Below, piece after piece: positions 28,211 through 46,645 of a stretch of 47,732 bases of DNA (position 1 is the stretch's first letter; every line of letters begins with the position of its first letter). The position numbers and the translations under genes are program-made. A model generated the notes under the pieces. The model was not told where the DNA came from. It searched no databases and saw only the letters and a list, made by a program, of their open reading frames with translations. This DNA comes from a virus (lineage: Duplodnaviria > Heunggongvirae > Uroviricota > Caudoviricetes), in the IMG/VR virus record IMGVR_UViG_2562617057_000003; one strand, given 5' to 3'.

Positions 28211-28293
28211 ATTCACTTACGTTTTGCCGGTTAGCAGGATTTCGTGTTATCCGCCCGCGTTGACCAACCTCATTTTTCAGCGAAATATTCTGC

Positions 28294-28827: not shown

Positions 28828-28940
28828 GGATATTTATCAGGATTTATCGGCTTCAAATCCCCGGATATGTTAAATCTTACCTCGCCAGTGATGGGCACTG
28901 GCGGGAGGAGGATGTCAATCTGATAAACACAGAGGTGACT

Positions 28941-29679: not shown

Positions 29680-29683
29680 TGAA

Positions 29684-29899
29684 TTACTCTCCCCGCGCAG
29701 CCTTACGCTTGTCTTCTCTTATTTTGAAATACAGATTTGTCAGATAAGTCAGAAGCCCCAGAAGCAGACTTCCCAGCACACCAATCGCAGCCCACTGTGA
29801 CGGACTGACCTGATCCAACCACTGCAAAAACCAGTAGCCGGCACTACCTGCTGAGGTGCCATAGGCGACACCCGTTGTTAACTTATCCATGGATTTCAT
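29684..29899 (-). CDS. S: Class II holin / pinholin (phage 21 S-like) with dual-start motif
   Basis: 71 aa [71 protein letters not shown]; two TM segments; M1/M4 dual start. Confidence 0.9.
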
Positions 29900-29966
29900 A
29901 ACCCCACCTCGCAGATGCGGGTGCTGTGTAATGGAAATAAAAAGACCACCTGACGTGGCCACCAGA

Positions 29967-31019: not shown

Positions 31020-31169
31020 AGATCAATAAGCACTTCTCTGATAGGCTCATACCGCTTTTGCGCAAAGCAGATGGGCCTGAGGTTTGCTTGTGACCCCAAC
31101 GCATGAGCAGATGGCTGGCAGGTGCCGCTAACACCCACCAGCCGCCCATTACCACAAATTAAAAAGCCT

Positions 31170-31367
31170 TCACTGCGGAAGGCGTCTGTAACAACCGAAC
31201 TGATAATCTGCCAGACCCGCCATAACAAGCTGGGTCAGTATTAACTGGCAGCGTTCGCGTGAAAGGTAAGTATTCTGCGCAATTTCCCCGACGGTCGCCG
31301 GTTCGGTGACGCTTAATTCATTAAACACCACTCTGGCGGTTTCGGTCATATCCTGCTGTTTTAGCAT
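31170..31367 (-). CDS. Small winged-helix-like hypothetical protein (65 aa)
   Basis: ATG 31367 preceded by AAGGG; MLKQQDMTETARVVFNELSVTEPATVGEIAQNTYLSRERCQLILTQLVMAGLADYQ; the longer ORF-track start lies inside the terminator. Confidence 0.5.
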   Translation of the reverse strand: MLKQQDMTETARVVFNELSVTEPATVGEIAQNTYLSRERCQLILTQLVMAGLADYQFGCYRRLPQ

Positions 31368-31490
31368 GCCTTTTTCCCTTTTCCGATTAACGTGACACAC
31401 CAATACCTCTTGTCGAAAAAGCCAGCAAGTTGAAAGACCGGTATTCGCAACCACCAGCGCGTTTAATGTTCTGTACCGCTTTTCGGGCAC

Positions 31491-31517
31491 AAAAAAACCC
31501 GCTCATCGGCGGGTTTA
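31491..31517 (-). terminator. Intrinsic terminator downstream of the Q-proximal antirepressor-like gene
   Basis: Minus strand AAACCCGCCGATGAGCGGGTTTTTTTGTG: GC stem plus 7 T. Confidence 0.65.
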
Positions 31518-31591
31518 AGCTGTGTGGCGTAGTAACCACTCTTAACAGGATATTCAACTTTTTACGATCGTAAAGCGTTCGGGGGAAATTT

Positions 31592-32152
31592 TTAAAGCCG
31601 CATCAACCGCTCCACCAGTTGCTCTTTACGGGCAACGATCCACCCGTGTTGCTCCAGATAAAATTTAAACCGTTCCAGAGTGCATACCATCACATCGGCA
31701 GGTACTTTTTCCGTGAAGTCGACCTGACCGTGTTTATCGAAGTGGATCAGTAATGCGCATCCATCATTTTCGATAGATGTGTTTTGTGCCGCTGGTGGTT
31801 GTTTTTGGTTGAAATAACAGTCTTCCAGTTTTTCGAATACTTCCCACGCCTGATCGGTTTCGAGCATTTTGGCGTGACGGGCTGCTCCGCGTTCTGTCCA
31901 GAGTATGAGCTTTCGGACATTTGGGGCGATCGTTTGAAAATCCCTTAAAGAGATTTTCAAATTTTGGAGGTCTGCGCCTTTCGCAATTATGTAGTGCTTC
32001 CCTTCTGCAAATCGCTCTTTATTACGGTGGTGATTTCTATGAATACACTCGACGCTACAGCCATATAGTTTGGCCAGTAACTCTGTAGTGACAACTGGGA
32101 GCTGGTTGTGTGTGATCGGGGAAAGAGTTTCGACAGAAACTTGAGTCGTCAT
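31592..32152 (-). CDS. Antirepressor-like protein (ORF6N-type N-terminal domain, Ant-type C-terminal domain)
   Basis: 186 aa; C-terminal ...ALLIHFDKHGQVDFTEKVPADVMVCTLERFKFYLEQHGW is paralogous to the C-terminus of the antirepressor at 42835-43392. Confidence 0.7.
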   Translation of the reverse strand: MTTQVSVETLSPITHNQLPVVTTELLAKLYGCSVECIHRNHHRNKERFAEGKHYIIAKGADLQNLKISLRDFQTIAPNVRKLILWTERGAARHAKMLETDQAWEVFEKLEDCYFNQKQPPAAQNTSIENDGCALLIHFDKHGQVDFTEKVPADVMVCTLERFKFYLEQHGWIVARKEQLVERLMRL

Positions 32153-32311
32153 GATAACGCCCTCTGGTTGATGGATTTAACTATCACCACCGTCAGGTTC
32201 CAATCATTGGGTGGTGAGACGTACAGGGTTGGAACTACCGGATCAACCAACCGGCGAGCCTTTCAGCTCCCCCATACGCCCCACCATTATTCAGATGTGC
32301 GTGTGCTTACG

Positions 32312-32338
32312 ACAATAAAAAACACGCTCGCGGCGTGT
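32312..32338 (-). terminator. tR'-like intrinsic terminator about 80 nt downstream of the late promoter
   Basis: Minus strand ACACGCCGCGAGCGTGT (6-bp stem) followed by TTTTTTATT. Confidence 0.6.
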
Positions 32339-32400
32339 GTCTGTCGCGGTTGAATATCCGGGGTTCCAATCCCGACGCCAGATTTTGCTGACGCGCGAGG

Positions 32401-32430
32401 AATATAGCCCCGGACAATGTATATGGTCAA
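32401..32430 (-). promoter_or_regulatory. Candidate late promoter pR' just downstream of Q
   Basis: Minus strand TTGACC - 18 nt - TATATT, starting 5 nt after the Q stop. Confidence 0.5.
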
Positions 32431-32434
32431 GCAC

Positions 32435-32821
32435 CTACATAATTCGTTCTACATATCTGTCCATCTCCAGCCGGATATCAAGCATCATCAACATGCCATC
32501 GATAACCCCTTCCGCCTTCTGCAGGCGCTTACCAACACAGGTATCCGAACATCCAAGTTTCCGTGCCAGACTCATAAAAGTCATTCCATATACGTAATAA
32601 TCCACCAGCAAATCGTGCAAATCCTGATTTTTCTTGTTTAACCGGGCCATACAGCCACAAATTATCATTGCATCATCATCAGAACACTGAGGACGTGATT
32701 TCACTTTCGACGGAATTAACCCTTTAAAACCAGCAGCGATCGACGCCCAGGATACATCTTCATGAGTGTTTGCAGCCCAAGCCCCCCACCGTTCCATAAC
32801 CTGCTGAATATCACGCGCCAT
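32435..32821 (-). CDS. Q: Late antiterminator Q (phage 82 / 21 type)
   Basis: [61 protein letters not shown]... zinc-binding Q82-like; ATG 32821 with RBS AGGTG. Confidence 0.88.
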
Positions 32822-32826
32822 CGTTA

Positions 32827-33189
32827 TCACCTGTGATTTCGTAAATCTTCACGCCCAGCCGCCCCCCCAGGAACGCGCTGACCGCGCACAATATTGATTT
32901 CATCAAACTGCTCGTCGTCTATGAGAAGTCCGGCATGCGTCAGCGCATCCAGTGGTGCTTTCAGGATATTGTCCAGGTCACGACGACGTTTATCCGGTGG
33001 CTCTGCAATAATCTTTATCGCCAGCCTTCCGGACAGGTTTAATTTCAGCCGCTGCTGGCGAACAATAAGCGCCACATCACGGCGATAACGCTCACCGGCT
33101 TTTGATACAAAATATGTGCTGCCACGACGTCGCCAGTAAGTGTTCACCGTTGGCGGGTAAGGCAAAACAAATTCTATGCGTTCAGTCAT
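32827..33189 (-). CDS. rusA: RusA Holliday-junction resolvase
   Basis: 120 aa, ...[13 protein letters not shown]...[30 protein letters not shown] RusA motifs. Confidence 0.9.
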
Positions 33190-34254
33190 TCATGCTTTCC
33201 ACTTCAGGACACCCGAATTTCTCGCGTGCATTAAAAAACGAATCAGCAACAACAGCTGGCTGCTGTGTTTTTCTTCAAAATCTTTTACCCCGGCGTGCAG
33301 TTCGTTATGACATTTACGGCACAACGGAATAACAAACAAATCGTCAGCCTTTGTTCCCATCCCTCCCAGTCCATGACCAATGATGTGATGCGGATCATCT
33401 GCCTGATTGCCACACGTCATGCATTTCTGCGTTTTTACCCAACGCGTGTATACAGGCATCTCTTCCCGTTGTGGTTTCTGGCGCTGGAGATACTGAGCCG
33501 GAGATTCCGGATCAACGGCAATGCTGACCACCGTCTTTTCCTGTGGTGGGTTCTGTTGCTGGTGCTGGTGGACGTGAGGCGGTAGCGCAATATTTTTTGT
33601 GCGCTGCTTCAGTATGCTGGTGGCTGTCTGTTCTCCCGGTATGATGTCGCTCTCGCGGTATATTGAGCGGATTTTTTCTGCTCGTACCCCCAGAGAGCGA
33701 CGTAATACTGCCTCCGGCAGTGCGTCCGCTACCTGATTGCAGACTGCCCACCAGGATAATTCAGCCAGCGATAACTCCCGCTCCTGCGTGCCATTCACTG
33801 CATGGCGTATGACGTCAATCATCCATGCTGACAGGTTTTGATGAGCAAGTTGCCCGAGTGATTCGGAGGTCTGGTCACGCAGCTGGTTGTCGCAGTGCCA
33901 GCACAACACCATCGCGCCGGTACCATAACGATGTATGACGATTTCACTGTGATGATAGTCACCATGAGGCCACTGGCAGGATTTGACATGACGCAACAGC
34001 CAGTCAGACAGTGCCCCAGCGCCGCCAGCAGCACGAATCACCCGATCATCGCTGAAAAATGGCAGTAATGATTTATCCTCCGCCAGCGGCTGGCGAACGG
34101 CAGGGACGACTCCGGATGGCAGGCCGCACATGCTTTTCGGTTCCGGCTCCACGAGCACTCGAAGATTGTGAAATACCTGCATGGATTCACGACCTGGCTT
34201 AAGGACCACCAGCCCGAGTTCCGGCACCAGAACAGGTCTAAGTAATACCCGCAC
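33190..34254 (-). CDS. DUF968-type protein with C-terminal HNH/zinc-finger motif (YdfU-like)
   Basis: 354 aa; C-terminus CMTCGNQADDPHHIIGHGLGG...PLCRKCHNELH; start uncertain (GTG 34254 or ATG 34182). Confidence 0.78.
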   Translation of the reverse strand: MRVLLRPVLVPELGLVVLKPGRESMQVFHNLRVLVEPEPKSMCGLPSGVVPAVRQPLAEDKSLLPFFSDDRVIRAAGGAGALSDWLLRHVKSCQWPHGDYHHSEIVIHRYGTGAMVLCWHCDNQLRDQTSESLGQLAHQNLSAWMIDVIRHAVNGTQERELSLAELSWWAVCNQVADALPEAVLRRSLGVRAEKIRSIYRESDIIPGEQTATSILKQRTKNIALPPHVHQHQQQNPPQEKTVVSIAVDPESPAQYLQRQKPQREEMPVYTRWVKTQKCMTCGNQADDPHHIIGHGLGGMGTKADDLFVIPLCRKCHNELHAGVKDFEEKHSSQLLLLIRFLMHARNSGVLKWKA

Positions 34255-34255
34255 G

Positions 34256-34534
34256 TTACCTCCAGATTCGTTGCTGGTATGTGCGGGATGAACGCGGTGG
34301 GCGTTCGGAGTAAGGGAGTCTGACTGAGATTATCCAGTGACGGTAGTCGAGGCTAAGAGCTTTCTTAACCTCGTATCCGCGCCTGCGGTAACACTGAATT
34401 ATCCATTCCGCCTGCTCTTCAGTGCATGGAGGATGCTGGAACCAGTCTGATTTGAATGCGTGAAAACGCCGTCCGCACCTACTGGCAAAGACGGCAGAAT
34501 CATTAGAATTGTGTAATTTGGTATCGTGCGCCAT
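34256..34534 (-). CDS. Hypothetical protein (about 92 aa); start uncertain
   Basis: ORF-track ORF extends to 34663, but 34600-34701 carries two terminator-like hairpins, so the ATG at 34534 is preferred. Confidence 0.45.
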   Translation of the reverse strand: MAHDTKLHNSNDSAVFASRCGRRFHAFKSDWFQHPPCTEEQAEWIIQCYRRRGYEVKKALSLDYRHWIISVRLPYSERPPRSSRTYQQRIWR

Positions 34535-34599
34535 CGGTTGTCTCTGCTGGCGCAGCAGGTGCCAGTTGTTCAGGCTGGCGTGCGAATTGTAAACCAGAA

Positions 34600-34633
34600 T
34601 GCCAGGAAAAAACAAAACCCGCCGAAGCGGGTT
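34600..34633 (-). terminator. Intrinsic terminator downstream of hok
   Basis: Minus strand stem CCCGC/GCGGG with a 4-nt loop followed by TTTTGTTTTTTCC; a second perfect 9-bp hairpin GGCGAGGGA-TTTC-TCCCTCGCC at 34680-34701 abuts the hok stop. Confidence 0.6.
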
Positions 34634-34701
34634 ACGTGCGGGTGCGTTGAGGATGCCTGACACATCAGAGGTGGCGAGGGATTTCTCCCTCGCCTGGTCT
34701 C

Positions 34702-34857
34702 TTACTCCTCAGGTTCGTAAGCTGTGAAGACAGCGACCTCCGTCTGGCCGGTTCGGATTCGTACCTCGCAGAGGTCTTTCCTCGTTACCAGTGCCGTCAC
34801 AATGACGGTAATACAGATGACGATCAGGGCGACTAACATCGCCTTTTGCTGCTTCAT
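34702..34857 (-). CDS. hok: Hok/Gef-family type I toxin
   Basis: 51 aa MKQQKAMLVALIVICITVIVTALVTRKDLCEVRIRTGQTEVAVFTAYEPEE, near-identical to E. coli HokD/RelF-type toxins. Confidence 0.9.
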   Translation of the reverse strand: MKQQKAMLVALIVICITVIVTALVTRKDLCEVRIRTGQTEVAVFTAYEPEE

Positions 34858-35068
34858 AGCCTGCTTCTCCTTGCCTTTCGGCACGTAAGAGGCTAACCTA
34901 GATTTGCCGTTCATAGATTGAGCCTCAGATTAATGTTAAGCGTCTTGCCGGACGCGTAATGTTAACTGGGGCTTTTCTCTATCTGCCTTTTGGTGTTCAT
35001 GCCTGAGACAGATAGCCTCAAGCACCCGCTGCAATTCTACTTAACTCTCCTTTTCCCGCAAACCGTTT
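34858..35068 (-). promoter_or_regulatory. hok mRNA leader (mok-like upstream ATG; expected site of antisense Sok RNA)
   Basis: About 210-nt leader with an in-frame upstream ATG at 34914 and several hairpins, as in hok/sok loci; Sok promoter not pinpointed. Confidence 0.45.
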
Positions 35069-35152
35069 TTATCCCCAGCGGCAAATCGAATACACCACCA
35101 GCGCCACCGCCAGTGCGATTCCTACCGTTGTGAATGCTTCAGACCAGGTCAT
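35069..35152 (-). CDS. Putative 27-aa hydrophobic peptide coupled to the upstream 171-aa gene
   Basis: ATG overlaps the upstream stop (ATGA); MTWSEAFTTVGIALAVALVVYSICRWG, a single TM-like helix; not in ORF track (under 60 aa). Confidence 0.35.
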   Translation of the reverse strand: MTWSEAFTTVGIALAVALVVYSICRWG

Positions 35153-35664
35153 CGTAAAACATCCTCCACGCTTATCAGTCCATTTCGTTTCAGGTAATCC
35201 ATCGCCTTCTCCGGTAATTTGCAGTCCGGCTGAGCTTTTTTCAGTTGACTGACCAGTCGTTTAACCCACATTGTTAATTCGCTAACCTGATTACTGGATG
35301 CTAGTGGATTGTCAGCTTTACCCAGAATGGCAGCACAGCAGGCCTCTTTGAGTACCCAATCAACAGCATCTTTCCATGCTCCTGTTTCAGCTGGCGGATT
35401 TTCACGCTTTACCTGTTCATAAAAGCGCACGGCTTTAACCAGTCCTTCTGATGTCACCGGGACTGGCGGGGCAGTGAATAAGGCCTGAATCTCATAGCTC
35501 GGCCTGTCGTTGCAATCCTCTTTTGTCGGTACATATTTCCAGTCACCAACCCACATCTTCTCCTGAAAGTCCGTAACGCTTTTTTTCACATAGCGATATC
35601 GCCATGCAACTGGTTTTGCCTGCCCTACCGTTTCATGCCCTTCCTGATAATTAATCTCGCTCAT
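35149..35664 (-). CDS. Hypothetical 171-aa nin-region protein
   Basis: Long ORF with ATG start coupled to the upstream small ORF (ATGA overlap); no family recognised. Confidence 0.65.
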   Translation of the reverse strand: MSEINYQEGHETVGQAKPVAWRYRYVKKSVTDFQEKMWVGDWKYVPTKEDCNDRPSYEIQALFTAPPVPVTSEGLVKAVRFYEQVKRENPPAETGAWKDAVDWVLKEACCAAILGKADNPLASSNQVSELTMWVKRLVSQLKKAQPDCKLPEKAMDYLKRNGLISVEDVLR

Positions 35665-35837
35665 TCATCGCCCCACTCATCACAATATGCTTCGACCGGT
35701 GTTTTTCCTGCTTCATAATCATCACGCCATGCATCGGCATCAGCAGCACTTCCACCGCGTAACTCTGCATAGGCCATTAACAGTTCATGCCATTCTTTAA
35801 AACTGACGTTGTATTTAGTTGAACCAAAATCAGCCAT
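35661..35837 (-). CDS. Putative 58-aa protein (not in ORF track)
   Basis: MADFGSTKYNVSFKEWHELLMAYAELRGGSAADADAWRDDYEAGKTPVEAYCDEWGDE; fills the gap between flanking ORFs and its stop overlaps the next ATG (ATGA). Confidence 0.45.
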   Translation of the reverse strand: MADFGSTKYNVSFKEWHELLMAYAELRGGSAADADAWRDDYEAGKTPVEAYCDEWGDE

Positions 35838-36012
35838 TTTGTTCTTCCTCTTCGTCTTTTATTTCGTGATATGAATAATTGCAGTAGTTAAAGAAAATTT
35901 CTTTTGCTTCGTCATGAATTTCATCAGGTGTTGCGTCATCGTCCACTTCGAATACATCCTCAAAATCTCCACCAGCTATTCCAGTTTCAATAATTATTTT
36001 GAACTTTCGCAT
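35830..36012 (-). CDS. Hypothetical 60-aa acidic protein
   Basis: ATG start; very acidic C-terminus (DEEEEQNG). Confidence 0.45.
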   Translation of the reverse strand: MRKFKIIIETGIAGGDFEDVFEVDDDATPDEIHDEAKEIFFNYCNYSYHEIKDEEEEQNG

Positions 36013-36107
36013 TTCACTACCGCCCTTTCAGGCGGCCTCCTGATGTTCTGAGGGTGCAGAAATCCCTCCGGTTAAGGATTAAATTTTATTTGCTGTGCTA
36101 AATTTAA

Positions 36108-36563
36108 TTATTCAGTTTTTATTCCTGCTCTCAAAACAGCCTCTGCCATTCTGATATCCGGATTTTCTGAAATCATCTTTTCCGGCGAGTCGCAATCACC
36201 ACCACATTCAGTTATGCGTTCATGACCAAAACGAATTGTGGTTTTGTGCGCATTAATCATTTGTGTAAGCGCATCTGTCAATTCTGCAATGCGTTTGTCT
36301 TTAACTTCCAGCTCTTTCAGTAAAGCCAGTACGTCAGGATCGCTAACATCAACGACGGTTACGCGCGATTTCAGGTAATGCTCATCCGCAAAAGTTCGAC
36401 CAGTTTTAAAATATCCATCATCCCCCTCACCTGTGCAGGCATACACAATATGCGTTCTGGAAAATATGCGCTGTATCGACATTTCATCGCCACAAACAGG
36501 ACATTCCGGCACCTGAATTGGTGAATAACGTTCACGTAATGCCTGGTAATTAGTCTTGCACAC
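36108..36563 (-). CDS. Hypothetical 151-aa protein with Cys-rich zinc-finger-like motifs
   Basis: GTG start with RBS AGGAG 7 nt upstream; CPVCG near the N-terminus and CGGDCD near the C-terminus. Confidence 0.6.
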   Translation of the reverse strand: MCKTNYQALRERYSPIQVPECPVCGDEMSIQRIFSRTHIVYACTGEGDDGYFKTGRTFADEHYLKSRVTVVDVSDPDVLALLKELEVKDKRIAELTDALTQMINAHKTTIRFGHERITECGGDCDSPEKMISENPDIRMAEAVLRAGIKTE

Positions 36564-36849
36564 TGGCTGTCTCCTGAAAAATCACCGCATGCCCCAGTTT
36601 CTCCGCCAGCGCCAGTTCTGCCTTAGCGCCTGCCGACCGATGCCAGCCTTTCAGCATGTAAATCGTATCCACACAGCGGAGCATCGCCGTACAAATATCC
36701 ATGTACTGCGCCTGTGTCAGCCCACCAGGAAGCACTGCCGGATTCAACACCGTGCACCCTTTCTGTTTCAGCTTCTCTTCCGCCTCGTGAAATGCCTCAC
36801 GGTTGAAATTTTTATACCCGGTCATCGGCCCTGCGATATAAACCCTCAT
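36550..36849 (-). CDS. DUF4406-like protein (nucleoside deoxyribosyltransferase-like fold)
   Basis: 99 aa MRVYIAGPMTGYKNFNREAFHEAEEKLKQKGCTVLNPA...; ATGA coupling to the upstream gene. Confidence 0.7.
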   Translation of the reverse strand: MRVYIAGPMTGYKNFNREAFHEAEEKLKQKGCTVLNPAVLPGGLTQAQYMDICTAMLRCVDTIYMLKGWHRSAGAKAELALAEKLGHAVIFQETASVQD

Positions 36850-37265
36850 ATCGTTGCTCCGTTATTACCCCTGTAAAACATCAAAACTCGCTGCATAACT
36901 TCACTTCTCCGGCACTCGCGACAGATTATGTTCTGTCGTCTGTTGTAACGACGTATTTCTCCGTCTGGTAATGACCAGATAAGGTCAGGATCAACCACAA
37001 CCGGTTTCCTCACCTTTACTCTCGAGAGTTTTTTGCGGGCGCTTTGCCAGTCCTTGCGAGCCTGTTCAGACGGGAATAAGCCGTAGCCAGAATTATATAC
37101 ATCACCACTTGCGACCAGTTCCATGCATAAGCGACCGACAGACGCACGACTGATACCTGTTTCATCTGACAACTGCCGAATCGTGACCCGACCGTCCTGA
37201 TGCACGAGTTCCACAATTCGCGTCTTCAGTTCTTCCCGCTGTTCGGGAGTAAAAGGTTTCGCCAT
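36846..37265 (-). CDS. Hypothetical 139-aa HTH-containing protein
   Basis: Strong RBS AGGAGG 4 nt upstream; HTH-like segment VTIRQLSDETGISRASVGRL. Confidence 0.65.
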   Translation of the reverse strand: MAKPFTPEQREELKTRIVELVHQDGRVTIRQLSDETGISRASVGRLCMELVASGDVYNSGYGLFPSEQARKDWQSARKKLSRVKVRKPVVVDPDLIWSLPDGEIRRYNRRQNIICRECRRSEVMQRVLMFYRGNNGATI

Positions 37266-37279
37266 AAATCCTCCTGAAA

Positions 37280-38026
37280 CTACTTAACAACCCTCGAATG
37301 GCTAACATTCGGACGCCAGCTCTCCCAGTTAAAATTCACCCAGCGCCCGCCGTTCATGACCATGCGATCCATCACCCGCTCGCCGAGAAGTGTATTCATC
37401 GCTGCATGGTTAATATTTGTCAGCATCCCCACACCGCGTAACGATGCCGTCCGGCGATCAACAATCTGGTTCAGTACCACCTGCTCGTTTTTCGTATCCC
37501 GCTGCATGCCAATTTCATCCAGGACCAGCAGGTCAACACCACAAAGCTCCTGTAAAAATTTTTCACCGGATTTGCCGTTGTCGTAGCTCTCATGCAACAC
37601 GCTCATGACATCGGACACGGTGACGATAATCACGCTACGCCCCTTCGCCATCAGCCGGTTGCCAATCGCGGCTGCAAGATGATTTTTTCCGGTGCCGGGC
37701 TTACCGCTGAACACAAAATTCGTGCACCCGGTCATCAGTTCGTCAGCGATGGATTTTGCCTGGCTCAGCGCGTGTTTTTGCCCGTCGTTCTGCACCTGAT
37801 AATTCGCAAACGAGCATTTGCTGTGCAGAGGCTGGATGCCCGAACGATTCAGGATTTTTTCCACCCGCAACTGGCGATTCTGGCGGTTGATCTCCTCGCT
37901 ACGTTTTCGCCCTTCTGCTAGTTGCCACTCGCGCCACTCGTCCACTGTCCGGTACGGCGCGATTACATGCCGCGGGGCCAGCTTACGGATACGCTCAAGA
38001 ACACCACCTGCCGCGATATTTTTCAT
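37280..38026 (-). CDS. DnaC-like helicase loader (IstB-type AAA+ ATPase)
   Basis: 248 aa; Walker A GKPGTGKNHLAAAIG and Walker B LLVLDEIG. Confidence 0.88.
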   Translation of the reverse strand: MKNIAAGGVLERIRKLAPRHVIAPYRTVDEWREWQLAEGRKRSEEINRQNRQLRVEKILNRSGIQPLHSKCSFANYQVQNDGQKHALSQAKSIADELMTGCTNFVFSGKPGTGKNHLAAAIGNRLMAKGRSVIIVTVSDVMSVLHESYDNGKSGEKFLQELCGVDLLVLDEIGMQRDTKNEQVVLNQIVDRRTASLRGVGMLTNINHAAMNTLLGERVMDRMVMNGGRWVNFNWESWRPNVSHSRVVK

Positions 38027-38032
38027 GGCCCG

Positions 38033-38998
38033 TTACCCCCTGAACCCCGGCGGTATTTCAGTATCCGGTTCAGAAATGTGATTCACGCAACGCTGTACAG
38101 GCGAACGCCCCAGACGAATAACCAGCTCATCCCATTTTTCGCGAAGCTTTGACGGGCTCATGACGTTTTTTACCCAGAATGGATCCCGCTGTACCCGACC
38201 AAACATTTCGCAAATTTGTCTGTGAGTTCTGCCATCCAGCATCCGCATTGTGCGCACGTCGTTGGCCCATGCGGTCCAGTTGGGTTCTTTCGGTCGCGAA
38301 ATCTCGCCATCATCGCTGGCGGCCTGCTCGTAAAGACTCACGATTCGCCCCCAGAACCACTGCGCACACGCCAAATCTTCCTGGCTGCCCCACTGGCGTT
38401 TTTTCGCACTGAACACAACCGCGCCAGGGTGTCGGGTTAAAAAATCCTGTTCAACCGTCTGCGGGTCCGGTTGCGAAGCTTCCGGACGAGAAGTCTTTTT
38501 ATTCTCTGTAGTAATCTCTGTTGTATTCTCTGTAAGATCATCAGGCCATTTTGACCCGATGACATTGGGTCGTTTTGAACCAATGGAGCGTGCCATTTTG
38601 GCCTCTTCCATCGTGTCATTTTGACCTGATGGAGCAGCGCATTTTGACCTGATGGATTCGCTCACTTTGCCACCATCTAAAAGCTCGCTCTCGTAATTAA
38701 TCGTGTAAAAATTAGTCATATCACGCTTTGATTTGTTGAGCTTTTCGCAACGCAAAAGCCCCAGCGTTTTCAGACTTGCAAATGCGCGTTTTAACGTTGA
38801 CTCTGACCAGAACGGGAACTGCTCCAGCCATTGTTCTGTTGTGTTATAAATCCAGCGAACACCATCACATTCCATGCCGGAACCGGTATCTCTCAACCAG
38901 TAATGCAACTGCTGCAACACGATGGCTTCATTCAGACCAATTTTCATCGCCAGCTGCGTGTTTATAACCAGCGGGCGTTCAGCAAAAAGGAGCTTCAT
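38033..38998 (-). CDS. Replication initiation protein (O-like / YdaU-like), contains the origin iterons
   Basis: 321 aa; N-terminal HTH-like domain; immediately upstream of the DnaC-like gene; iterons inside the coding sequence. Confidence 0.8.
   Translation of the reverse strand: MKLLFAERPLVINTQLAMKIGLNEAIVLQQLHYWLRDTGSGMECDGVRWIYNTTEQWLEQFPFWSESTLKRAFASLKTLGLLRCEKLNKSKRDMTNFYTINYESELLDGGKVSESIRSKCAAPSGQNDTMEEAKMARSIGSKRPNVIGSKWPDDLTENTTEITTENKKTSRPEASQPDPQTVEQDFLTRHPGAVVFSAKKRQWGSQEDLACAQWFWGRIVSLYEQAASDDGEISRPKEPNWTAWANDVRTMRMLDGRTHRQICEMFGRVQRDPFWVKNVMSPSKLREKWDELVIRLGRSPVQRCVNHISEPDTEIPPGFRG
38500..38700. repeat. Putative origin of replication: three ATTCTCTGT repeats (38501-38535) plus at least five CATTTTGACCTGATGGA-type iterons (38547-38680) and an AT-rich segment
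   Basis: CATTTTGACC at 38547 and CATTTTGACCTGATGGA at 38617 and 38640, with variants at 38572, 38594 and 38662. Confidence 0.65.
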
Positions 38999-39019
38999 CC
39001 CCTCCCCCAGAACACGTTA

Positions 39020-39445
39020 TCAATGCACCACCACGGCATTTCCCGCCGGACCACCACGATTCATCTGATTGAAACCAGCAATTACCACCGCGACAAGTTC
39101 ATCAGCGTCTCTCACCAATCGTTCATGCGTCTCCACCAGTTCCCGAAAATAAGCGGAACTGTGGCTGCGCATCCAGGCCACCAGCGGAGGTGGCATAGCC
39201 TTTTCGATCGCAGGTAACAACGCCTGAATTTTTTCAACCGCATCAGGAGTGTCTTTCTCCACCCAGCGGAATATTTTCTGTGTATTACGGGCCAGGGCTT
39301 CCGGATGGCTGTCGTCGTACAGTTCAGGGAACGTCATCCCCAGTTCGAAATAAGTCCGGGCTATTTCAGCTGCAGGAACTTTCTCACCATCAGGGTATGC
39401 CCAGGCATTCATCGCCATGCGGATGTGTTCATGCTTGATTTTCAT
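39020..39445 (-). CDS. YdaT-like protein (cII-position regulator)
   Basis: 141 aa starting MKIKHEHI...; RBS GGAGG 7 nt upstream; follows the cro-like gene. Confidence 0.6.
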   Translation of the reverse strand: MKIKHEHIRMAMNAWAYPDGEKVPAAEIARTYFELGMTFPELYDDSHPEALARNTQKIFRWVEKDTPDAVEKIQALLPAIEKAMPPPLVAWMRSHSSAYFRELVETHERLVRDADELVAVVIAGFNQMNRGGPAGNAVVVH

Positions 39446-40234: not shown

Positions 40235-40696
40235 ATGGGCGTACTCGAAATCAGTGCTCTTAGAATTAAGATGCTTCTATTGGCAAAAGGCTGGAGCCAA
40301 GCAGAACTTGCGCGCAGAATTGGTATTGCTCAACAATCCGTCCAAAGGTGGGTTTGTGGCATCTCAAGCCCTACAGCAGCCAACCTAGATAAACTATCTG
40401 ATGTGACTGGATTTCCTCAGTATTGGTTTTTCTTACCATTAAATGAAGAAAATAAGGACAGGGCACAGGATATATTAAAAATAACCCCTACGCAAAAGGA
40501 ACTACTTCAAACATTTGAGGCATTTCCAGAGGAAGAGCAACAGCAAATGCTTAAAGATATGAAGGAGAAAAAAGAGACAATGGATCGTATAGTTGCAAAG
40601 TGGCTAGCAGCACAACAAAAAGTTCCTAGGCAGGATTACCAGTACTTACAAGACGAGGTTCACCATGAACACGGCCCTTTCACCAATGGTTTCTGA
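40235..40696 (+). CDS. paaR: Second DicA-like HTH regulator (PaaR-like regulator of the adjacent toxin-antitoxin pair)
   Basis: 153 aa; HTH IKMLLLAKGWSQAELARRIGIAQQSVQRW; C-terminal domain paralogous to the upstream repressor; 3' end overlaps the antitoxin gene. Confidence 0.65.
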   Translation: MGVLEISALRIKMLLLAKGWSQAELARRIGIAQQSVQRWVCGISSPTAANLDKLSDVTGFPQYWFFLPLNEENKDRAQDILKITPTQKELLQTFEAFPEEEQQQMLKDMKEKKETMDRIVAKWLAAQQKVPRQDYQYLQDEVHHEHGPFTNGF

Positions 40697-40856
40697 ATTT
40701 GAAACCGTCGAGCAAGAAAATAGTTATAACGAATGGCTGCGTGCAAAAGTGGCCGCAAGCCTTGCTGATCCACGTCCAGCCATTCCCCATGACGAAGTTG
40801 AACGCAGAATGGCTGAACGCTTTGCTAACATGCGCAAGGAACGGAGCAAACAGTAA
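40665..40856 (+). CDS. paaA: PaaA-type antitoxin (ParE-associated antitoxin)
   Basis: 63 aa MNTALSPMVSEFETVEQENSYNEWLRAKVAASLADPRPAIPHDEVERRMAERFANMRKERSKQ; stop abuts the toxin ATG (TAAATG). Confidence 0.72.
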   Translation: MNTALSPMVSEFETVEQENSYNEWLRAKVAASLADPRPAIPHDEVERRMAERFANMRKERSKQ

Positions 40857-41144
40857 ATGTTACCGGTTTTATGGCTCGAAAGCGCAGATGCCGACCTAGA
40901 TAATATAACCAGCTATATTGCACGTTTTGACATAGATGCGGCAGAACGTTTGTGGAAACGCTTAAGGACTTGCGTCCTGCCATTATCTGAACATCCGTAT
41001 TTATACCCGCCAAGCGACAGAGTGCCTGGTTTGCGTGAAATTGTAGCTCACCCCAATTACATCATTCTGTACCGCGTGACAATTTCAGGCATTGAAATTG
41101 TTAACGTAGTTCACGCCCGCCGACAGTTCCCTGTAACACCTTAA
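40857..41144 (+). CDS. parE: ParE/RelE-family toxin
   Basis: 95 aa MLPVLWLESADADLDNITSYIARFDIDAAERLWKRL...IEIVNVVHARRQFP, ParE-like. Confidence 0.82.
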   Translation: MLPVLWLESADADLDNITSYIARFDIDAAERLWKRLRTCVLPLSEHPYLYPPSDRVPGLREIVAHPNYIILYRVTISGIEIVNVVHARRQFPVTP

Positions 41145-42348: not shown

Positions 42349-42834
42349 AAGTGAATTTTGTGATGCGGTGAATGCGGCTCAGCGCACGCGGCACAGTTAA
42401 AAAGCGATTAGTTCCCCCGTATCGGGTGGTTATGGGTTTCCCTGTATCCGGCGTTAATTGTTAACTGGTTAACGTCACCTGGAGGCACCAGGCACCGCAT
42501 CAACAAAGTTCACTTCGGTGATGAAAGGAAAGAGAAAATGTTGAATGTAGCTATTGAAAACCAGAACGGGTGGAATTATAGTGCACCTGCACCTTATAAA
42601 ACGGGTGCCGGGCGTGGAAACCCGAACGTTACTCGAGCGCATAGCCGCGCTGAAGCGGTTTTTTTATGCGTAATGCACAGCTCCATTCAAATTATGGTGG
42701 GATGTGCAGGGCAGTCGCAAGACTGGCCGGGTTCTCGAGTGACCGGTATTTCCACCCCTGTACGTCTCACCACCCTTATGGTCGTGGAAAACCTCGGTGG
42801 TGAGTTAATTAACTTATCACTCGAGGATGCCATC

Positions 42835-43392
42835 ATGGCTACTATCCCTGCCCTTTCTCACCCTGACGTAACCATCGAAAATGGTCGCGCTGTCACTACG
42901 TCTATTGCGATCGCAGAGTTCTTTGGCAAGCGTCACGACAATGTGTTACGTGCCATCGCAAATACTGAATGCTCACCTGAATTTAACGCCCTCAATTTTG
43001 AGGACGTCACCTACACTGACGCCAAAGGCGAAAAACGCCCGATGTACCAAATCACCAAAAACGGCTTCGTTTTCCTGGTGATGGGATTCACTGGCAAAAA
43101 AGCCGCTGCATTTAAAGAAGCCTACATTGCTGAGTTCGATCGCATGGAGGCCGAACTGCGCCAGAATAACACCCCACCTGCTGACAAGATGATTCCGGGT
43201 GATGGTCGCACTCTGGTTGTTCACTTCGACAAATTCGGCAATGTCGAATTCACCGAAACCGTTCCTGATGGCGCACTGGTCTGTACCCTGGAGACTTTCC
43301 GGTTTTATCTGGAAAAACAGGGATGGACTCTTGTTAACCGGGGCGCAATTAAAAATATGACTGTGGAACAATTACTCAAAATTCATTGTTGA
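42835..43392 (+). CDS. Rha-family antirepressor (Ant)
   Basis: 185 aa from ATG 42835 (RBS GAGGA); N-terminal Rha-type ...AVTTSIAIAEFFGKRHDNVLRAIA...; C-terminal Ant-type domain shared with 31592-32152; the ORF-track upstream extension is probably non-coding leader. Confidence 0.8.
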   Translation: MATIPALSHPDVTIENGRAVTTSIAIAEFFGKRHDNVLRAIANTECSPEFNALNFEDVTYTDAKGEKRPMYQITKNGFVFLVMGFTGKKAAAFKEAYIAEFDRMEAELRQNNTPPADKMIPGDGRTLVVHFDKFGNVEFTETVPDGALVCTLETFRFYLEKQGWTLVNRGAIKNMTVEQLLKIHC

Positions 43393-43402
43393 GGACGCAA
43401 TA

Positions 43403-43591
43403 ATGGAGACGTTATTACCAAACGTTAATACGTCTGAAGGTTGTTTTGAAATTGGTGTCACTATCAGTAACCCTGTATTTACTGAAGATGCCATTAACAA
43501 GAGAAAACACGAACGGGAGCTATTAAATAAAATATGCATTGTTTCAATGCTGGCTCGTTTACGTCTGATGCCAAAAGGATGTGCACAATGA
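43403..43591 (+). CDS. Hypothetical 62-aa protein
   Basis: ATG with RBS GAGGA 7 nt upstream; stop overlaps the next ATG (ATGA). Confidence 0.45.
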   Translation: METLLPNVNTSEGCFEIGVTISNPVFTEDAINKRKHERELLNKICIVSMLARLRLMPKGCAQ

Positions 43592-43779
43592 ATACAGTAT
43601 TTGCACTCGTTCTGACGGTTTTTCTTGTTTCCGGTGAACCGGTTGACATGGTTACTGGCGTATACAGCTCAATGAAAGAATGTAGGACTGCCGCAGCGAA
43701 ACAGAAAATTCCCGGTGACTGTTATCCGGTCGATAAAGTTATTCACCAGGATAATATCGAAATCCCGGCAGGTCTTTAA
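43588..43779 (+). CDS. Small predicted secreted protein (63 aa with N-terminal signal peptide)
   Basis: ATG 43588 with RBS AAGGA 8 nt upstream; MNTVFALVLTVFLVSGEPVDM... signal-like N-terminus, two Cys. Confidence 0.45.
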   Translation: MNTVFALVLTVFLVSGEPVDMVTGVYSSMKECRTAAAKQKIPGDCYPVDKVIHQDNIEIPAGL

Positions 43780-43872: not shown

Positions 43873-46314
43873 ATGAGCACTGATAAAGAAGAATTTGCAC
43901 TATATTGCGAAGCAAAAAATGACAAAGTAAGAAAACGCCTGGGAATTAAAGGTGGTTTTTACTGGACTACAGCAAAAAAATTATCTGTTGCAATCTCCCG
44001 CTGCATTACCGCAATGGATGACAACGATTATGATGAAGACGACTTTAAAAAACCCGTCCGCGTCAATTTGCCCGTTGTTGACGACCTTCCGCCAGAAGGC
44101 GTGTTTGATACTGAATTCTGCAACCGCTATGAAAAAGGCGGGAAAGATGGCATCACAATGACATTTATCGGCCCTTCCCCCTCTGTTCAGGACAAACCAG
44201 CCAGCACTGACAATACCAACATCAACGGCGAAGACATGACTGAGATTGAGGAGAGCATGCTTCTGCCTGTCTCCGGTCAGGAACTGCCCATTCGTTGGCT
44301 TGCTCAACACGGCAGCGAAAAACCAGTAACGCACGTTTCACGCGACGAACTCCAGGCATTACACATTGCATGGGCTGAAGAACTACCGGCTGTTACTGCC
44401 CTGGCTATTTCGCATAAAACCAGTCTGCTCGACTCGCTGGAGATTCGCGACCTCCACAAACTGGTTCGTGACACTGACAAAATTTTCCCTAATCCTGGTA
44501 ATTCAGACCTGGGACTAATAACTGCTTTTTTCGAAGCATACCTGGACGCTGACTACACTGATCGGGGTCTGCTGACAAAAGAGTGGATGAAAGGAAATCG
44601 TGTTTCACGCATCACCCGCACGGCTTCCGGTGCTAATGCTGGCGGTGGGAACAAAACCGATCGCAATCCGAATTTAGTACACACCCTCGACACACTGGAT
44701 GTGGAGATTGCAGCAGCCACACTTCCGATGGATTTTAATATTTATGAAATTCCGGGCAGCGTTTATCGTCGCGCAAAAGAAGTAGTTCTGAACAAAGAAA
44801 GTCCGTTCAAAGAATGGTCCGCAGCACTTCGTGCAACCCCGGGTATTCTGGACTATTCCCGCGCCGCTATTTTTGCACTTATCCGAAGCGCACACCCTGA
44901 ATTTTATCACTACCCGGGACGCCTTCAGGGGTATATCAACGCCTATTTGACGGAAACTGATCACGAGAACCCCAGCAAGGAAACTCTCACAGCTGCCCGG
45001 CATACGCCGGAAAAAGATATCCTGGAAGAAATTAACCGCGAGGTGGTTACTGAGCGTGAAACAGAAGAAGAAAAACCACAACCATCTGACGCAATGGCAG
45101 GTGAACAGGCAACAACTGAAACAATGGAACCGGATACAACTGAACATGGCCAGAACGCGCAGTCGCTGGATGCTCAGTCGCAGGTGAGTTCCGCTAACCA
45201 AGTAAAAGTCACCGCTGACGAAGTAAACAAAATTATGCAGGCAGCCAATATCAGCCAGCCTGACGCCGATAAGTTACTTGCTGTATCGCGTGGTGAATTT
45301 GTTGAGGGGATTAGCGACCCGAATGATCCGAAATGGGTCAAAGGGATCCAGACTCGCGATTCTGTGAACCAGAACCAGCATGAATCGGAACGGAACGACC
45401 AAAAAGCGGAACAAAACAGCCCAAATGCGTTACAAAACGAGCCAGAAACGAAACAATCCGAACCAGTGGCGCAACAGGAAGTGGAAAAAGTCTGCACCGC
45501 CTGCGGTCAGAGCGGTGGCGGCAACTGCCCTGATTGTGGTGCGGTGATGGGTGACGCAACATGCCTGGAAATATTCGATGGAGAGAATCAGCCTGAAGTT
45601 CAGGAAGATGATCCGGAGGAAATGGAAGGCGCTGAACATCCACACAAGGAGAACACTGGCGGCAATCAGCATCACGATAGCGATAATGAAACTGGCGAGA
45701 CGGCAGATCACTCAATTAAGGTGAACGGTCATCAAGAAATCACATCCACCAGCAGGACGTGTGACCATCTAATGATCGACCTTGAAACCATGGGAAAAAA
45801 TCCTGATGCCCCGATCATCTCAATAGGTGCAATATTTTTCGATCCGCAAACCGGAGATATGGGACCGGAATTTAGTAAGACTATCGATCTGGAAACTGCT
45901 GGCGGAGTCATTGATCGGGACACCATTAAATGGTGGCTTAAGCAATCACGCGAAGCGCAATCTGCCATTATGACCGATGAAATCCCGTTAGATGATGCAC
46001 TGTTACAATTGCAGGAATTTATCGACGAAAACTCCGGTGAATTTTTTGTTCAGGTCTGGGGAAATGGAGCCAACTTCGACAACACGATTTTGCGCCGTTC
46101 ATACGAACGGCAGGGGATCCCCTGCCCGTGGCGTTACTACAACGATCGCGATGTACGCACAATCGTTGAGCTGGGGAAAGCCATAGACTTCGATGCCAGA
46201 ACGGCTATTCCATTCGAAGGTGAGCGCCATAATGCACTTGATGACGCCCGTTACCAGGCAAAATACGTTTCAGTTATCTGGCAAAAACTGATCCCGAGTC
46301 AGGCTGATTTTTAA
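43873..46314 (+). CDS. Large exonuclease: RecE-like N-terminal region, acidic linker with zinc ribbon, C-terminal DnaQ-like (DEDDh) 3'-5' exonuclease domain
   Basis: 813 aa; C-terminal motifs LMIDLETMG (Exo I), WGNGANFD (Exo II), [11 protein letters not shown] (Exo III); [16 protein letters not shown] zinc ribbon; N-terminal segment resembles what I recall of RecE. Confidence 0.75.
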
Positions 46315-46375: not shown

Positions 46376-46645
46376 ATGAGCGAACAGTACCTGATAACGC
46401 TCGACGAGTGGAAACCAAAACGGTTCAGTCTCCCAATAACAAACACTACCCTGGTGAAATACGGAAAACTAGGATACATCGTTCCAAGGCCACAAAAAAT
46501 TCGTGGGCGTTGGCTGATAGATCGCCGGGCAGTATTTGTTGGGCCTGGTGAAACGGGAATTGCGCCGGAAATTCATACTGGCGATGATGATGCACTGAAG
46601 GAGATTTTAACTCATGTCACCGAGGCCACGAAAAAACAGCACTGA
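46376..46645 (+). CDS. xis: Excisionase-like protein
   Basis: About 89 aa MSEQYLITLDEWKPKRFSLPITNTTLVKYGKLGYIVPRPQKIRGRWLIDRRAV...; immediately upstream of and overlapping int; RBS GGAG. Confidence 0.65.
   Translation: MSEQYLITLDEWKPKRFSLPITNTTLVKYGKLGYIVPRPQKIRGRWLIDRRAVFVGPGETGIAPEIHTGDDDALKEILTHVTEATKKQH

Follow-up and report, generated by a model that had tools for sequence, protein, structure and literature searches.

A common Escherichia coli prophage gene couples a RecE-like N-terminal region to a predicted DEDDh exonuclease domain

The exonuclease gene considered here lies at 43873..46314 on the plus strand of the window, the whole 47,732-nucleotide stretch of DNA that was analysed. 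It is a complete coding sequence for 813 amino acids, with an ATG start, a stop codon and a GAGG about 11 nt 5' of the ATG. Upstream on the same strand are dicB (43403-43591), matched by Pfam DicB at E 4e-40, and a ydfD-like gene that ends at 43779 and is matched by Pfam DUF1482 at E 4e-22, and these neighbours (43403..43779) reproduce the operon setting of dicB-ydfD-ydfE in the Qin prophage of K-12. Downstream, also on the plus strand, ORF calls place an excisionase at 46376-46645 and an integrase at 46614-47732, which together form the prophage end, in agreement with the slot next to xis-int that the earlier note had assigned to the gene. The order dicB-ydfD-[exonuclease]-xis-int recurs in relatives, and the placement ahead of xis-int is kept in relatives whose N-terminal modules are only 35-45% identical; of 78 loci at species level, 50 have an integrase within the next two ORFs. 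According to RefSeq annotation, near-identical prophages are inserted beside potC. A promoter-like site directly 5' of the exonuclease gene was not found.

The protein joins the N-terminal region of RecE and a DEDDh exonuclease domain in one chimera, as had been proposed from the letters alone, and the match lies far beyond chance. Its first 375 residues (43873..44997, plus strand) form a globular N-module homologous to the N-terminal region of Rac RecE, in which a small alpha/beta domain (residues 1-100) is followed by a helical domain (residues 120-375). Pfam places PF06630 (Exonuc_VIII) at residues 57-189 (44041..44439, plus strand; E 3e-34), and BLASTP against RecE of the K-12 Rac prophage aligns residues 58-615 with RecE 50-591 at 57% identity and finds nothing alignable past residue 615. 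The NCBIfam profile NF007259 (exodeoxyribonuclease VIII) covers residues 1-615 with its positions 1-602 of 877, scoring 928 bits, which is below its cutoff of 1269 bits. The N-terminal resemblance to RecE is confirmed. At the DNA level, window positions 44211-44664 are 92% identical to Rac recE. Residues 1-615 are identical to those of the database protein P0121, which likewise has 813 residues. The N-module is acidic, and a DNA-binding fold was not recognised in it; it is under purifying selection (dN/dS 0.48 in the more distant pairs).

The C-terminal part of the protein (45766..46311, plus strand) is a predicted DEDDh (DnaQ-like) 3'-5' exonuclease domain of the PF16473 / T4 DexA type, recognised by Pfam, alignment, AF2 modelling and Foldseek. 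PF16473 (Rv2179c-like) matches residues 632-803 with an E value of 1.5e-67 and 227 bits against a cutoff of 27, over profile positions 2-177 of 177. The Exo I, II and III motifs that the earlier note had read at this end, in place of the RecE nuclease, are all present: D636 and E638 make up Exo I (DxE; codons 45778-45780 and 45784-45786), D736 is Exo II (46078-46080), and H786 and D791 make up Exo III (Hx4D; 46228-46230 and 46243-46245), all on the plus strand. These five residues are invariant in an alignment of 34 sequences with identities down to 57%. An AF2 model of the domain reached a pLDDT of 85.8 and a pTM of 0.82, and the best solved structure matched to it by Foldseek was T4 DexA (8kel; E 2e-11, TM 0.72). 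DexA, RNase T, the DnaQ domain of Cas2-DnaQ and Orn/REXO2 were all matched at probability 1.00, which corresponds to an RNase H-like DnaQ fold. Like the N-module, the domain is under purifying selection: in comparison with the domain of another prophage locus, L009, to which it is 71% identical, dN/dS is 0.18. The PD-(D/E)XK 5'-3' nuclease of RecE (RecE residues ~564/606-866) is absent, and a tblastn search of the window with RecE residues 600-866 was negative. In its place stands a DEDDh domain of the DexA/Rv2179c type.

Between the N-module and the nuclease runs an acidic, mostly disordered tether of about 230 residues (residues 396-632; 45058..45768, plus strand), with a pI of 4.3, a net charge of -35 and pLDDT mostly below 50, in which short helices are found at residues 448-472. 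This tether is common to RecE and the YdfE-type proteins; in blastn comparisons, its DNA resembles Rac recE over 45064-45709 and the YdfE-type gene of L009 over 45224-45615. It contains a four-cysteine zinc ribbon, C541-x2-C544...C552-x2-C555 (45493..45537, plus strand), which was recognised by motif inspection with a marginal match to Pfam DZR, and a linker (residues 561-632) of which Asp and Glu make up 28%. An acidic linker and a CxxC...CxxC ahead of the DEDDh domain had been singled out in the earlier note, and both are present. However, they do not characterise the fusion, since Rac RecE has both and carries the same CxxC...CxxC in the BLASTP alignment; the zinc ribbon and acidic linker are RecE's own features and not additions of the fusion. 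Comparison of the gene with Rac, L009 and Qin by blastn reveals a mosaic junction at 45709..45721 (plus strand), where likeness to Rac recE stops at 45709 (residue 613) and likeness to the DEDDh-coding DNA of other prophages starts at 45721 (residue 617). A second sharp boundary coincides with the start codon, at which DNA likeness to Qin and L009 ends. The mosaic junction is followed, at a distance of 25-37 bp on its 3' side, by a Chi octamer on the minus strand (45746..45753; GCTGGTGG), which all of the 80 E. coli loci from IMG/VR have at the same place.

A search for the same architecture elsewhere, a check suggested beforehand, found the gene to be among the commonest prophage genes in E. 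coli. Among 5426 complete E. coli genomes, 1261 carry the exact architecture (PF06630 plus PF16473 in 813 residues) and 4052 (75%) carry the DEDDh segment, in up to seven copies per genome. Near-identical database proteins number more than 8000, and one protein is present on at least 1000 contigs; the NCBI product names are 'exonuclease' or '3'-5' exonuclease', and the 813-residue protein is WP_000102136. The reading frame is intact in the window and in most of the thousands of copies. The gene is an intact member of a very common, already catalogued family of enterobacterial prophages, and the sequence feature is ordinary and already known and reveals no new kind of system. The earlier note had considered that this exact architecture might belong to a standard, well-characterised family: the family is indeed abundant and named, but a published functional study of a RecE-N/DEDDh fusion protein was not found in the literature.

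The relatives of the gene show that it is a three-part mosaic, consisting of an N-module of the RecE or YdfE type, a common tether and a swappable nuclease. At 81 E. coli prophage loci (80 from IMG/VR and the window), the N-terminal end was of the YdfE type at 61 and of the RecE type at 17, and the tether and DEDDh domain were the same behind both. In local HMM searches, 72 long relatives of the N-module that had diverged to less than 50% identity carried the RecE nuclease in 25 cases, a DEDDh domain in 12 and neither in 35, and one N-module relative had RecT fused on.

Several known systems can be compared with the window protein. The likeness of Rac RecE (K-12 b1350) extends over the N-terminal 590-615 residues, including the PF06630 region, the acidic tether and the zinc ribbon, and recE is likewise a lambdoid early-left gene 5' of xis-int; in Rac, however, recT overlaps recE, whereas the window gene is without recT, and the polarity expected from the sequence of the window protein is the opposite one. 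The N-terminal part of RecE is dispensable for RecET recombination. The YdfE-type exonucleases, which include the K-12 Qin ydfE pseudogene (b1577) and the 823-residue 'exonuclease' of such phages as Tritos, HannyBb, mEp460 and PPompW, share the slot dicB-ydfD-[gene]-xis-int, the tether and the DEDDh domain, with 94-97% DNA identity over window nt 45202-46314, but their first ~440 residues are of another sequence type, in which only a short stretch is 36-40% similar; a BLASTP comparison of the window protein with K-12 YdfE gave no significant match. T4 DexA (exonuclease A; PDB 8KEL/8KEN), which is the best sequence match among solved proteins as well (phmmer E 2e-6), shares the fold and the five catalytic residues, although identity is only ~21% and the DexA loops are missing in the window protein. 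Trp152 of DexA, which stacks on 5hmC, corresponds to another aromatic residue here, Tyr756, and the reliable sequence alignment ends short of D169, a second 5hmC-reading residue of DexA. DexA is a 227-residue enzyme that stands alone, belongs to a virulent phage whose DNA is modified, and is active in intron homing (PMC12153337), whereas the DEDDh domain in the window is the C-terminal fifth of an 813-residue temperate-phage protein.

The only E. coli relative with a tested phenotype is EcD ('HREX'), a DexA homologue with a conserved DEDDh centre, which, when carried on a plasmid, is reported to degrade T4 DNA, to spare unmodified dsDNA and to protect E. coli from T4 (Kang et al. 2025, PMC12153337). 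This lone experiment on an E. coli DexA homologue points to defence, against a reading in terms of phage DNA metabolism. EcD was cloned as a stand-alone protein, and its ends (MIDTET...TIPETYD, from the primers) are unlike those of the window protein. At the position of DexA Asp90, a tetramer residue, EcD has Ala and occurs in a dimer-only form, whereas the window protein keeps Asp (D708). Among the ~180 loci or 390 proteins examined there was no 'MIDTET' ORF, and the EcD reverse primer was not found in IMG/VR.

The earlier note had stated that no RecT, Bet or ERF gene is adjacent, and this holds over a wider range. Pfam searches of 20 early-region ORFs (33.2-43.8 kb) detected none of the RecT, ERF, Rad52 and AAA_24 families, and in the window tblastn gave no match to RecT, Bet, lambda Exo or Gam. 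Within 8 kb, these four were likewise missing from all 81 loci of the IMG/VR set with the window and from all 78 GTDB loci. For ERF (by Pfam), Rad52 and Sak4, the screen at related loci covered the two nearest ORFs upstream and the two nearest downstream. Annealing-protein genes were never seen beside fused DEDDh genes, whose 5' neighbours are Rrf2/HTH-type proteins, and recombinase-type neighbours were seen only beside stand-alone DEDDh genes. The latter adjoin Sak4-type AAA_24 (six neighbouring ORFs), SSB (five), ERF (two) and Rad52 (one), a recombinase/SSB setting that points to DNA metabolism.

The window contains 20 Chi sites where about one would be expected from its base composition. 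Fifteen of the 20 lie on the strand that RecBCD would read when it enters at the right cos end, and 17 of the 20 lie inside 27.8-39.2 kb. This richness matches the lambdoid class 'no Rec module, high Chi' in the passages in which Zheng et al. 2025 (PMC12315714) define it, and it fits lambdoids leaving recombination to the host. The same work (Zheng, Casjens, Smith et al. 2025, PMC12315714) also names the DnaQ-like type among the nucleases of lambdoid Rec modules and mentions isolated DnaQ-type genes near int. The window fits both the isolated-DnaQ and the Chi-rich descriptions; a fusion to the RecE N-terminal region is not described in that paper's passages on DnaQ-type genes.

We propose, with moderate confidence, that the gene encodes a tethered, 3'-end-trimming DNA exonuclease of the early lytic phase, which would serve phage DNA metabolism as an accessory DNA-end-processing enzyme. 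End processing was one of the roles suggested in the earlier note, and it fits the predicted chemistry reasonably well. The gene would be the last of the early-left operon, after dicB-ydfD and before xis-int, and its product would therefore be made on induction or infection and not in the quiet lysogen, a timing that is read from gene order only. The C-terminal domain is predicted to be a two-metal 3'-to-5' exonuclease that trims the 3' ends of DNA, either in single strands or at recessed or frayed duplex ends, and the N-module and tether may bring it to the same partner or site as RecE. The protein is probably not the resection half of a two-component recombinase (exonuclease plus annealing protein) of the RecET type, because its expected polarity is wrong and no annealing protein, whether RecT, Bet or ERF, is encoded with it. 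General recombination would probably be left to host RecBCD and RecA, recruited by the dense, correctly oriented Chi sites. According to Lovett 2011, as cited by Zheng et al. (PMC12315714), the usual effect of 3'-5' DNA exonucleases on homologous recombination is to inhibit it and not to promote it. Cooperation of the enzyme with the Chi pathway is not obvious, because a 3' exonuclease would attack the 3' tails produced by Chi-activated RecBCD. An RNA substrate is conceivable, because the name of the family derives from an exoribonuclease (Rv2179c).

Other readings of the gene differ in the nucleic acid that the nuclease would meet. In a recombination exonuclease of reversed polarity, the 3' strand would be resected and the exposed 5' tails would pair by themselves or with the aid of the host, which would make a phage annealing protein unnecessary; host exonuclease III does such 3' resection in RecA-independent in vivo cloning in E. 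coli. The occupation of the Rec-module slot agrees with this, as do the Sak4, SSB, ERF and Rad52 genes that adjoin the stand-alone homologues and the N-module and tether shared with RecE, which there enhance linear-linear recombination (Fu et al. 2012, as cited in the review PMC11611040). We nevertheless consider it distinctly unlikely, as fused forms are never near an annealing protein, DexA-type enzymes are not known for processive dsDNA resection, and the very high Chi density suggests delegation to RecBCD. It is improbable, too, that the protein is an early lytic anti-defence enzyme that removes immunity parts or signals with free 3' ends, such as retron msDNA, defence-RT cDNA or oligonucleotide messengers. 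Its position in an early operon would suit such a role, such DEDDh relatives as Orn and REXO2, both among the structural matches, degrade short oligonucleotides, and the swapping of a nuclease on a constant scaffold is a pattern frequent in arms-race genes. Rac RecE degrades retron msDNA in vivo, which has been called an anti-restriction function, but in the same work msDNA degradation triggers retrons and does not disarm them (Bobonis et al., bioRxiv 10.1101/2020.06.22.160242). Similarity to known anti-defence families is absent, the neighbours of the stand-alone homologues speak for DNA metabolism instead, and our analysis yields nothing specific to anti-defence, the other role suggested in the earlier note.

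It is rather unlikely, in our estimate, that the gene is a prophage-borne exclusion or defence nuclease, in which foreign DNA that enters the cell (for example, that of 5hmC-modified T-even phages) would be degraded from its 3' ends by the DEDDh domain while host DNA is spared. The phenotype of EcD against T4 (PMC12153337) supports this idea, together with the standing of DexA as the closest solved structure, the location at the prophage end, a frequent place for accessory genes, the carriage by three quarters of complete E. coli genomes in up to seven copies, and the adjoining dicB operon, which is known to protect against phages (Ragunathan and Vanderpool 2019). The list of DexA homologues in PMC12153337 is mostly Escherichia, and two of its entries, WP_000102132 and WP_000102110, are numerically adjacent to WP_000102136, which is suggestive only. 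However, EcD is a different protein with unlike sequence ends, and its effect was seen on plasmid expression in a single study; the loss of Asp90 that is said to make EcD safe and 5hmC-specific is not seen here, and the 5hmC-stacking Trp of DexA is a Tyr. Moreover, a PADLOC scan gave only a 12-bit, chance-level match, PADLOC (2023) being without an HREX model, and the operon is expected to be repressed in the lysogen, with no promoter-like site found before the gene. Finally, a functionless leftover of module shuffling, hitch-hiking beside xis-int, is highly improbable. Many O157 prophage copies have been described as disrupted (PMC2669165), the ydfE of K-12 Qin is an IS-truncated pseudogene, and dN/dS is only 0.45-0.63 among very close alleles, at a dS of ~0.01 that makes it uninformative; but the frame is intact here and in most copies, the catalytic residues are all invariant, dN/dS of the DEDDh domain is low at larger divergence, the fusion persists in the 12 lineages of less than 50% identity, and the gene is found in phages obtained as particles.

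The accessory trimming enzyme of phage DNA metabolism is the reading that we prefer. A broader proposal, which we regard as unlikely, is that the RecE/YdfE N-module and acidic zinc-ribbon tether serve generally as a scaffold for delivery, through which interchangeable enzymes (PD-(D/E)XK, DEDDh, RecT or nothing) would reach one cellular target, and that the DEDDh form would be a widespread, overlooked conflict gene directed against foreign phage DNA, for instance modified DNA, or host-immunity nucleic acids and not a gene of recombination. In the literature searched, we did not find it stated together that the N-terminal region of RecE is a separate module with at least three different C-terminal ends, that one of these would be a nuclease of opposite polarity, and that the fused form travels without an annealing protein, here in a Chi-rich phage. 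The role is worth finding because the gene is so common in the prophages of pathogenic and commensal E. coli, and it would fill a gap in lambdoid phage biology; the candidates are recombination accessory, exclusion of modified-DNA phages and counter-defence. Once found, this role might also explain the purpose of the N-terminal two thirds of RecE.

E. coli proteins of 180-185 residues that appear as 'stand-alone' DEDDh proteins were considered as a separate gene and rejected, as they come from gene calls cut short where a contig ends or an N-gap intervenes. Genuine stand-alone DEDDh genes occur in Salmonella and many other genera.

The open reading frame at 43873..46314 (+) runs without interruption from an ATG start and encodes 813 aa, and every element that the earlier note had listed in it was found. 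The RecE resemblance claimed for its N-terminal region was borne out by Pfam Exonuc_VIII (PF06630, aa 57-189, E 3e-34), by the NCBI exodeoxyribonuclease VIII model NF007259 (aa 1-615, profile positions 1-602 of 877) and by BLASTP against E. coli K-12, in which aa 58-615 align with residues 50-591 of RecE of the Rac prophage at 57% identity and no alignment to Rac RecE extends beyond aa 615. Because the NF007259 match is limited to those profile positions, the protein scores 928 bits, below the 1269-bit cutoff. As had been claimed, the C-terminal end carries DEDDh motifs and not a RecE nuclease: it matches the Rv2179c-like 3'-5' exoribonuclease domain (PF16473, aa 632-803, E 1.5e-67, 227 bits against a cutoff of 27), and D636 and E638 (Exo I), D736 (Exo II) and H786 and D791 (Exo III) show no variation in an alignment of 34 homologues reaching down to 57% identity. 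Structure prediction gave a confident model of this domain (pLDDT 85.8, pTM 0.82), for which the top solved structure in Foldseek is phage T4 DexA (8KEL, E 2e-11, TM 0.72), followed by RNase T, a Cas2-linked DnaQ domain and oligoribonucleases; DexA was also the sole match in a sequence search of the PDB (E 2e-6). Since profile, motifs and predicted fold agree, we assign the protein to the PF16473/DexA-like DEDDh family. It lies outside NCBI's definition of the RecE family: the nuclease domain and a recT partner were both tested for and both absent. The acidic linker and zinc-ribbon cysteines (C541, C544, C552, C555) that the note had pointed out are present; however, Rac RecE has the four-cysteine set and the linker as well, so they are features of the RecE part and not new to the fusion.

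Judged from DNA similarity, the gene is a three-part mosaic. Similarity to Qin and to L009, a prophage with a YdfE-type gene, spans dicB-ydfD and ends at the start codon; Rac recE is matched over 44211-44664 (92%) and 45064-45709 (74%), up to aa 613; and from 45721 (aa 617) onward the match is to the stretch that encodes DEDDh in other prophages. The protein that other prophages have in the slot dicB-ydfD-[gene]-xis-int differs in its N-terminal ~440 residues, which are of the type seen in ydfE, a K-12 Qin pseudogene (86% identity); its tether and DEDDh domain are the same as here. K-12 YdfE itself gave no match to the window protein; the latter is the sibling, with a RecE-type N-end, of the YdfE-type prophage exonucleases. 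In a set of 81 prophage loci from E. coli (80 of them from IMG/VR, the other being the window), the N-end is of YdfE type in 61 and of RecE type in 17; 3 loci are cut. A Chi octamer lies at 45746-45753 (-), 25-37 bp 3' of the tether/DEDDh junction, and is found at the same spot in 80/80 IMG/VR E. coli loci and 5/24 species-level loci; it could have helped domain exchange or be a coincidence.

With aa 1-440 as the query, only 218 relatives were found among 1.84 billion cluster representatives. The C-end of the 72 relatives of at least 550 aa is a RecE nuclease in 25, a DEDDh domain in 12 and neither in 35; the fusion is thus old and recurrent and not a one-off accident. One relative (703 aa; the relatives of aa 1-440 are P0244 and P0245-P0376) joins the RecE N-module straight to a RecT domain, and the others tested among those with neither have no recognisable C-terminal family. 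This RecT fusion, together with the 35/72 long relatives without a recognisable nuclease, suggests that the N-module is probably functional by itself, and the nuclease-less relatives agree with the 'RecE-2' proteins that Zheng et al. 2025 (PMC12315714) describe as lacking the nuclease. Both modules are under constraint: dN/dS is 0.18 when the DEDDh domain is compared with a 71%-identical copy and 0.48 when the N-module is compared with Rac RecE.

When one genome per species was scanned, 78 loci could be used, almost all of them from Enterobacterales with some from Aeromonas, Aliivibrio and Pseudoalteromonas. Stand-alone DEDDh genes (182-257 aa) account for 49 and fused genes (641-851 aa) for 29, and each of the 29 is similar to the RecE-type N-module. 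An integrase follows within the next two ORFs at 50/78 loci, usually with the excisionase first, and RecT, Bet, lambda Exo, Gam and RecE nuclease were found within 8 kb at 0/78. The fused form was found nowhere but at the int-proximal end, and no annealing protein accompanied it in screens for RecT and Bet within 8 kb and for ERF, Rad52 and Sak4 in the two closest ORFs on each side. Two diverged fused relatives have this short early-left operon too, with [fusion]-Exc-Int at its end. Some stand-alone genes are preceded by ORFs for AAA_24 (Sak4-type, 6), SSB (5), ERF (2) or Rad52 (1). An Rrf2-family gene (~112-126 aa, transcription-factor-like) directly precedes 14/29 species-level fused genes (loci L103, L104, L109, L121, L123, L131, L136, L147, L149, L152-L154, L161 and L166; also L097-L099), and small HTH or unknown proteins precede the rest; in E. 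coli, dicB-ydfD fill this position. A true stand-alone gene (189 aa) precedes xis-int in a Salmonella prophage (L005-L008, 4743-6570); it directly follows a DndB-family gene, with YfdP and DUF2303 (YfdQ-like) further upstream. Contigs of MAGs labelled Veillonella parvula, Geobacteraceae and Actinomycetes (L101, L124, L139) hold enterobacterial prophage DNA with up to 99% identity to the window gene, most likely through mis-binning.

The claim that no RecT, Bet or ERF gene is adjacent also stood. Pfam found no RecT, ERF, Rad52 or Sak4 family among 20 ORFs across both early operons (33.2-43.8 kb), and tblastn with RecT, lambda Bet, lambda Exo, Gam and RecE nuclease domain queries found no match in the window. 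The early ORFs instead encode repressor-type HTH proteins, DUF1391, an Ash/Rha antirepressor, DicB, DUF1482 (YdfD-like), YdaS/YdaT, an IstB/DnaC-like loader, DUF977, DUF4406, Ead/Ea22 and DUF968/HNH. The immunity/early-left region also contains a PaaA2-ParE type II toxin-antitoxin pair (40665-41144, +), and a sok antitoxin RNA (hok/sok type I system) lies at 34852-35027 (-). Two isrK + C4-antisense RNA pairs exceed the Rfam gathering scores, one (42589-42777, +) just ahead of the ORF for the Ash/Rha antirepressor (42538-43392); the other (32207-32407, -) precedes the antiterminator region and has a c4 a1/b1 target match in addition. The arrangement resembles antisense control, of P1/P7 type, over an antirepressor in a lambdoid prophage.

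The Chi octamer GCTGGTGG occurs 20 times in the window, between 1168 and 47569 (5 on the + and 15 on the - strand), where base composition predicts ~0.5 per strand and the E. coli average of ~1 per 4.6 kb would give ~10. Between 27.8 and 39.2 kb, the arm adjoining cos, lie 17 of the 20 (27887-39185), and most are oriented so that RecBCD coming in from the right cos end would recognise them. With Rec module and Gam absent, this pattern fits the class 'no Rec module, high Chi', that is, lambdoid phages aided by RecBCD, as set out by Zheng et al. 2025 (PMC12315714).

We are highly confident of the architecture and chemistry described here; the biological role we propose more tentatively, at an even chance or somewhat less. 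The analysis shows a DexA-like fold with its DEDDh active site intact, an acidic tether that is long and flexible, a folded N-module that RecE has as well, and no annealing protein. In the role proposed, the protein would be expressed on induction or infection and trim DNA 3' ends, its N-module delivering it to whatever RecE's N-region binds. It would then be an accessory end-processing enzyme, not half of a RecET-type recombinase, and host RecBCD/RecA would carry out recombination proper at Chi. Three points speak against this role: recombination is usually inhibited by 3' exonucleases (Zheng et al. 2025, PMC12315714), the enzyme would attack Chi-generated 3' tails, and RNA is a possible substrate too.

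The enzyme could also, though less probably, be a recombination exonuclease of reversed polarity or, by analogy with the E. coli DexA homologue EcD, a defence nuclease. EcD is reported to degrade 5hmC DNA and to give protection from T4 (Kang et al. 2025, PMC12153337), the sole experiment on an E. coli relative. However, EcD differs from the window domain at both termini, the change of DexA D90 to Ala, said to make EcD safe, is absent (D708 here), DexA Trp152 corresponds to Tyr756, also an aromatic residue, PADLOC found no match, and the operon position speaks against expression in the lysogen. Anti-defence is conceivable for an early gene but has a low probability; RecE itself degrades retron msDNA (bioRxiv 10.1101/2020.06.22.160242). 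A functionless remnant is unlikely because of conservation: five invariant residues, recurrent fusion and low dN/dS.

The gene is real and was rightly described in the earlier note, and it is an extremely common prophage gene. A search for the same architecture in other genomes, as suggested there, found it at a coverage of at least 80% in 1261/5426 complete E. coli genomes (megablast), annotated as 'exonuclease' or '3'-5' exonuclease', and found the DEDDh-coding 594 bp in 4052/5426, with up to 7 copies per genome. Protein searching gave at least 8000 matches, those listed having exactly PF06630 + PF16473 in 813 aa, and one 813-aa sequence is on at least 1000 contigs. The gene is already catalogued, being named in NCBI genomes, in phage records (as 'exodeoxyribonuclease VIII') and among the 'Exo VIII-type' proteins of seven Sakai prophages (Asadulghani et al. 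2009, PMC2669165). Isolated DnaQ-type genes close to int are mentioned by Zheng et al. 2025 (PMC12315714). Of the standard, characterised family with this exact architecture that the note had set against its own reading, the abundance and cataloguing proved true, but no functional study was found in the literature searched. What is useful here is the view of the RecE N-region as a module, together with a gene that is ubiquitous, easy to test and the subject of three concrete hypotheses. Database entries from E. coli with a length of 180-185 aa and the name '3'-5' exoribonuclease' were rejected as stand-alone genes: they begin MIDLET within the Exo I motif, lie at contig ends or beside runs of N (L009-L012; P0047, P0051, P0065-P0074) and are truncated calls of the long prophage gene. 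EcD was cloned from the equivalent Met (MIDTET) (Kang et al. 2025, PMC12153337).
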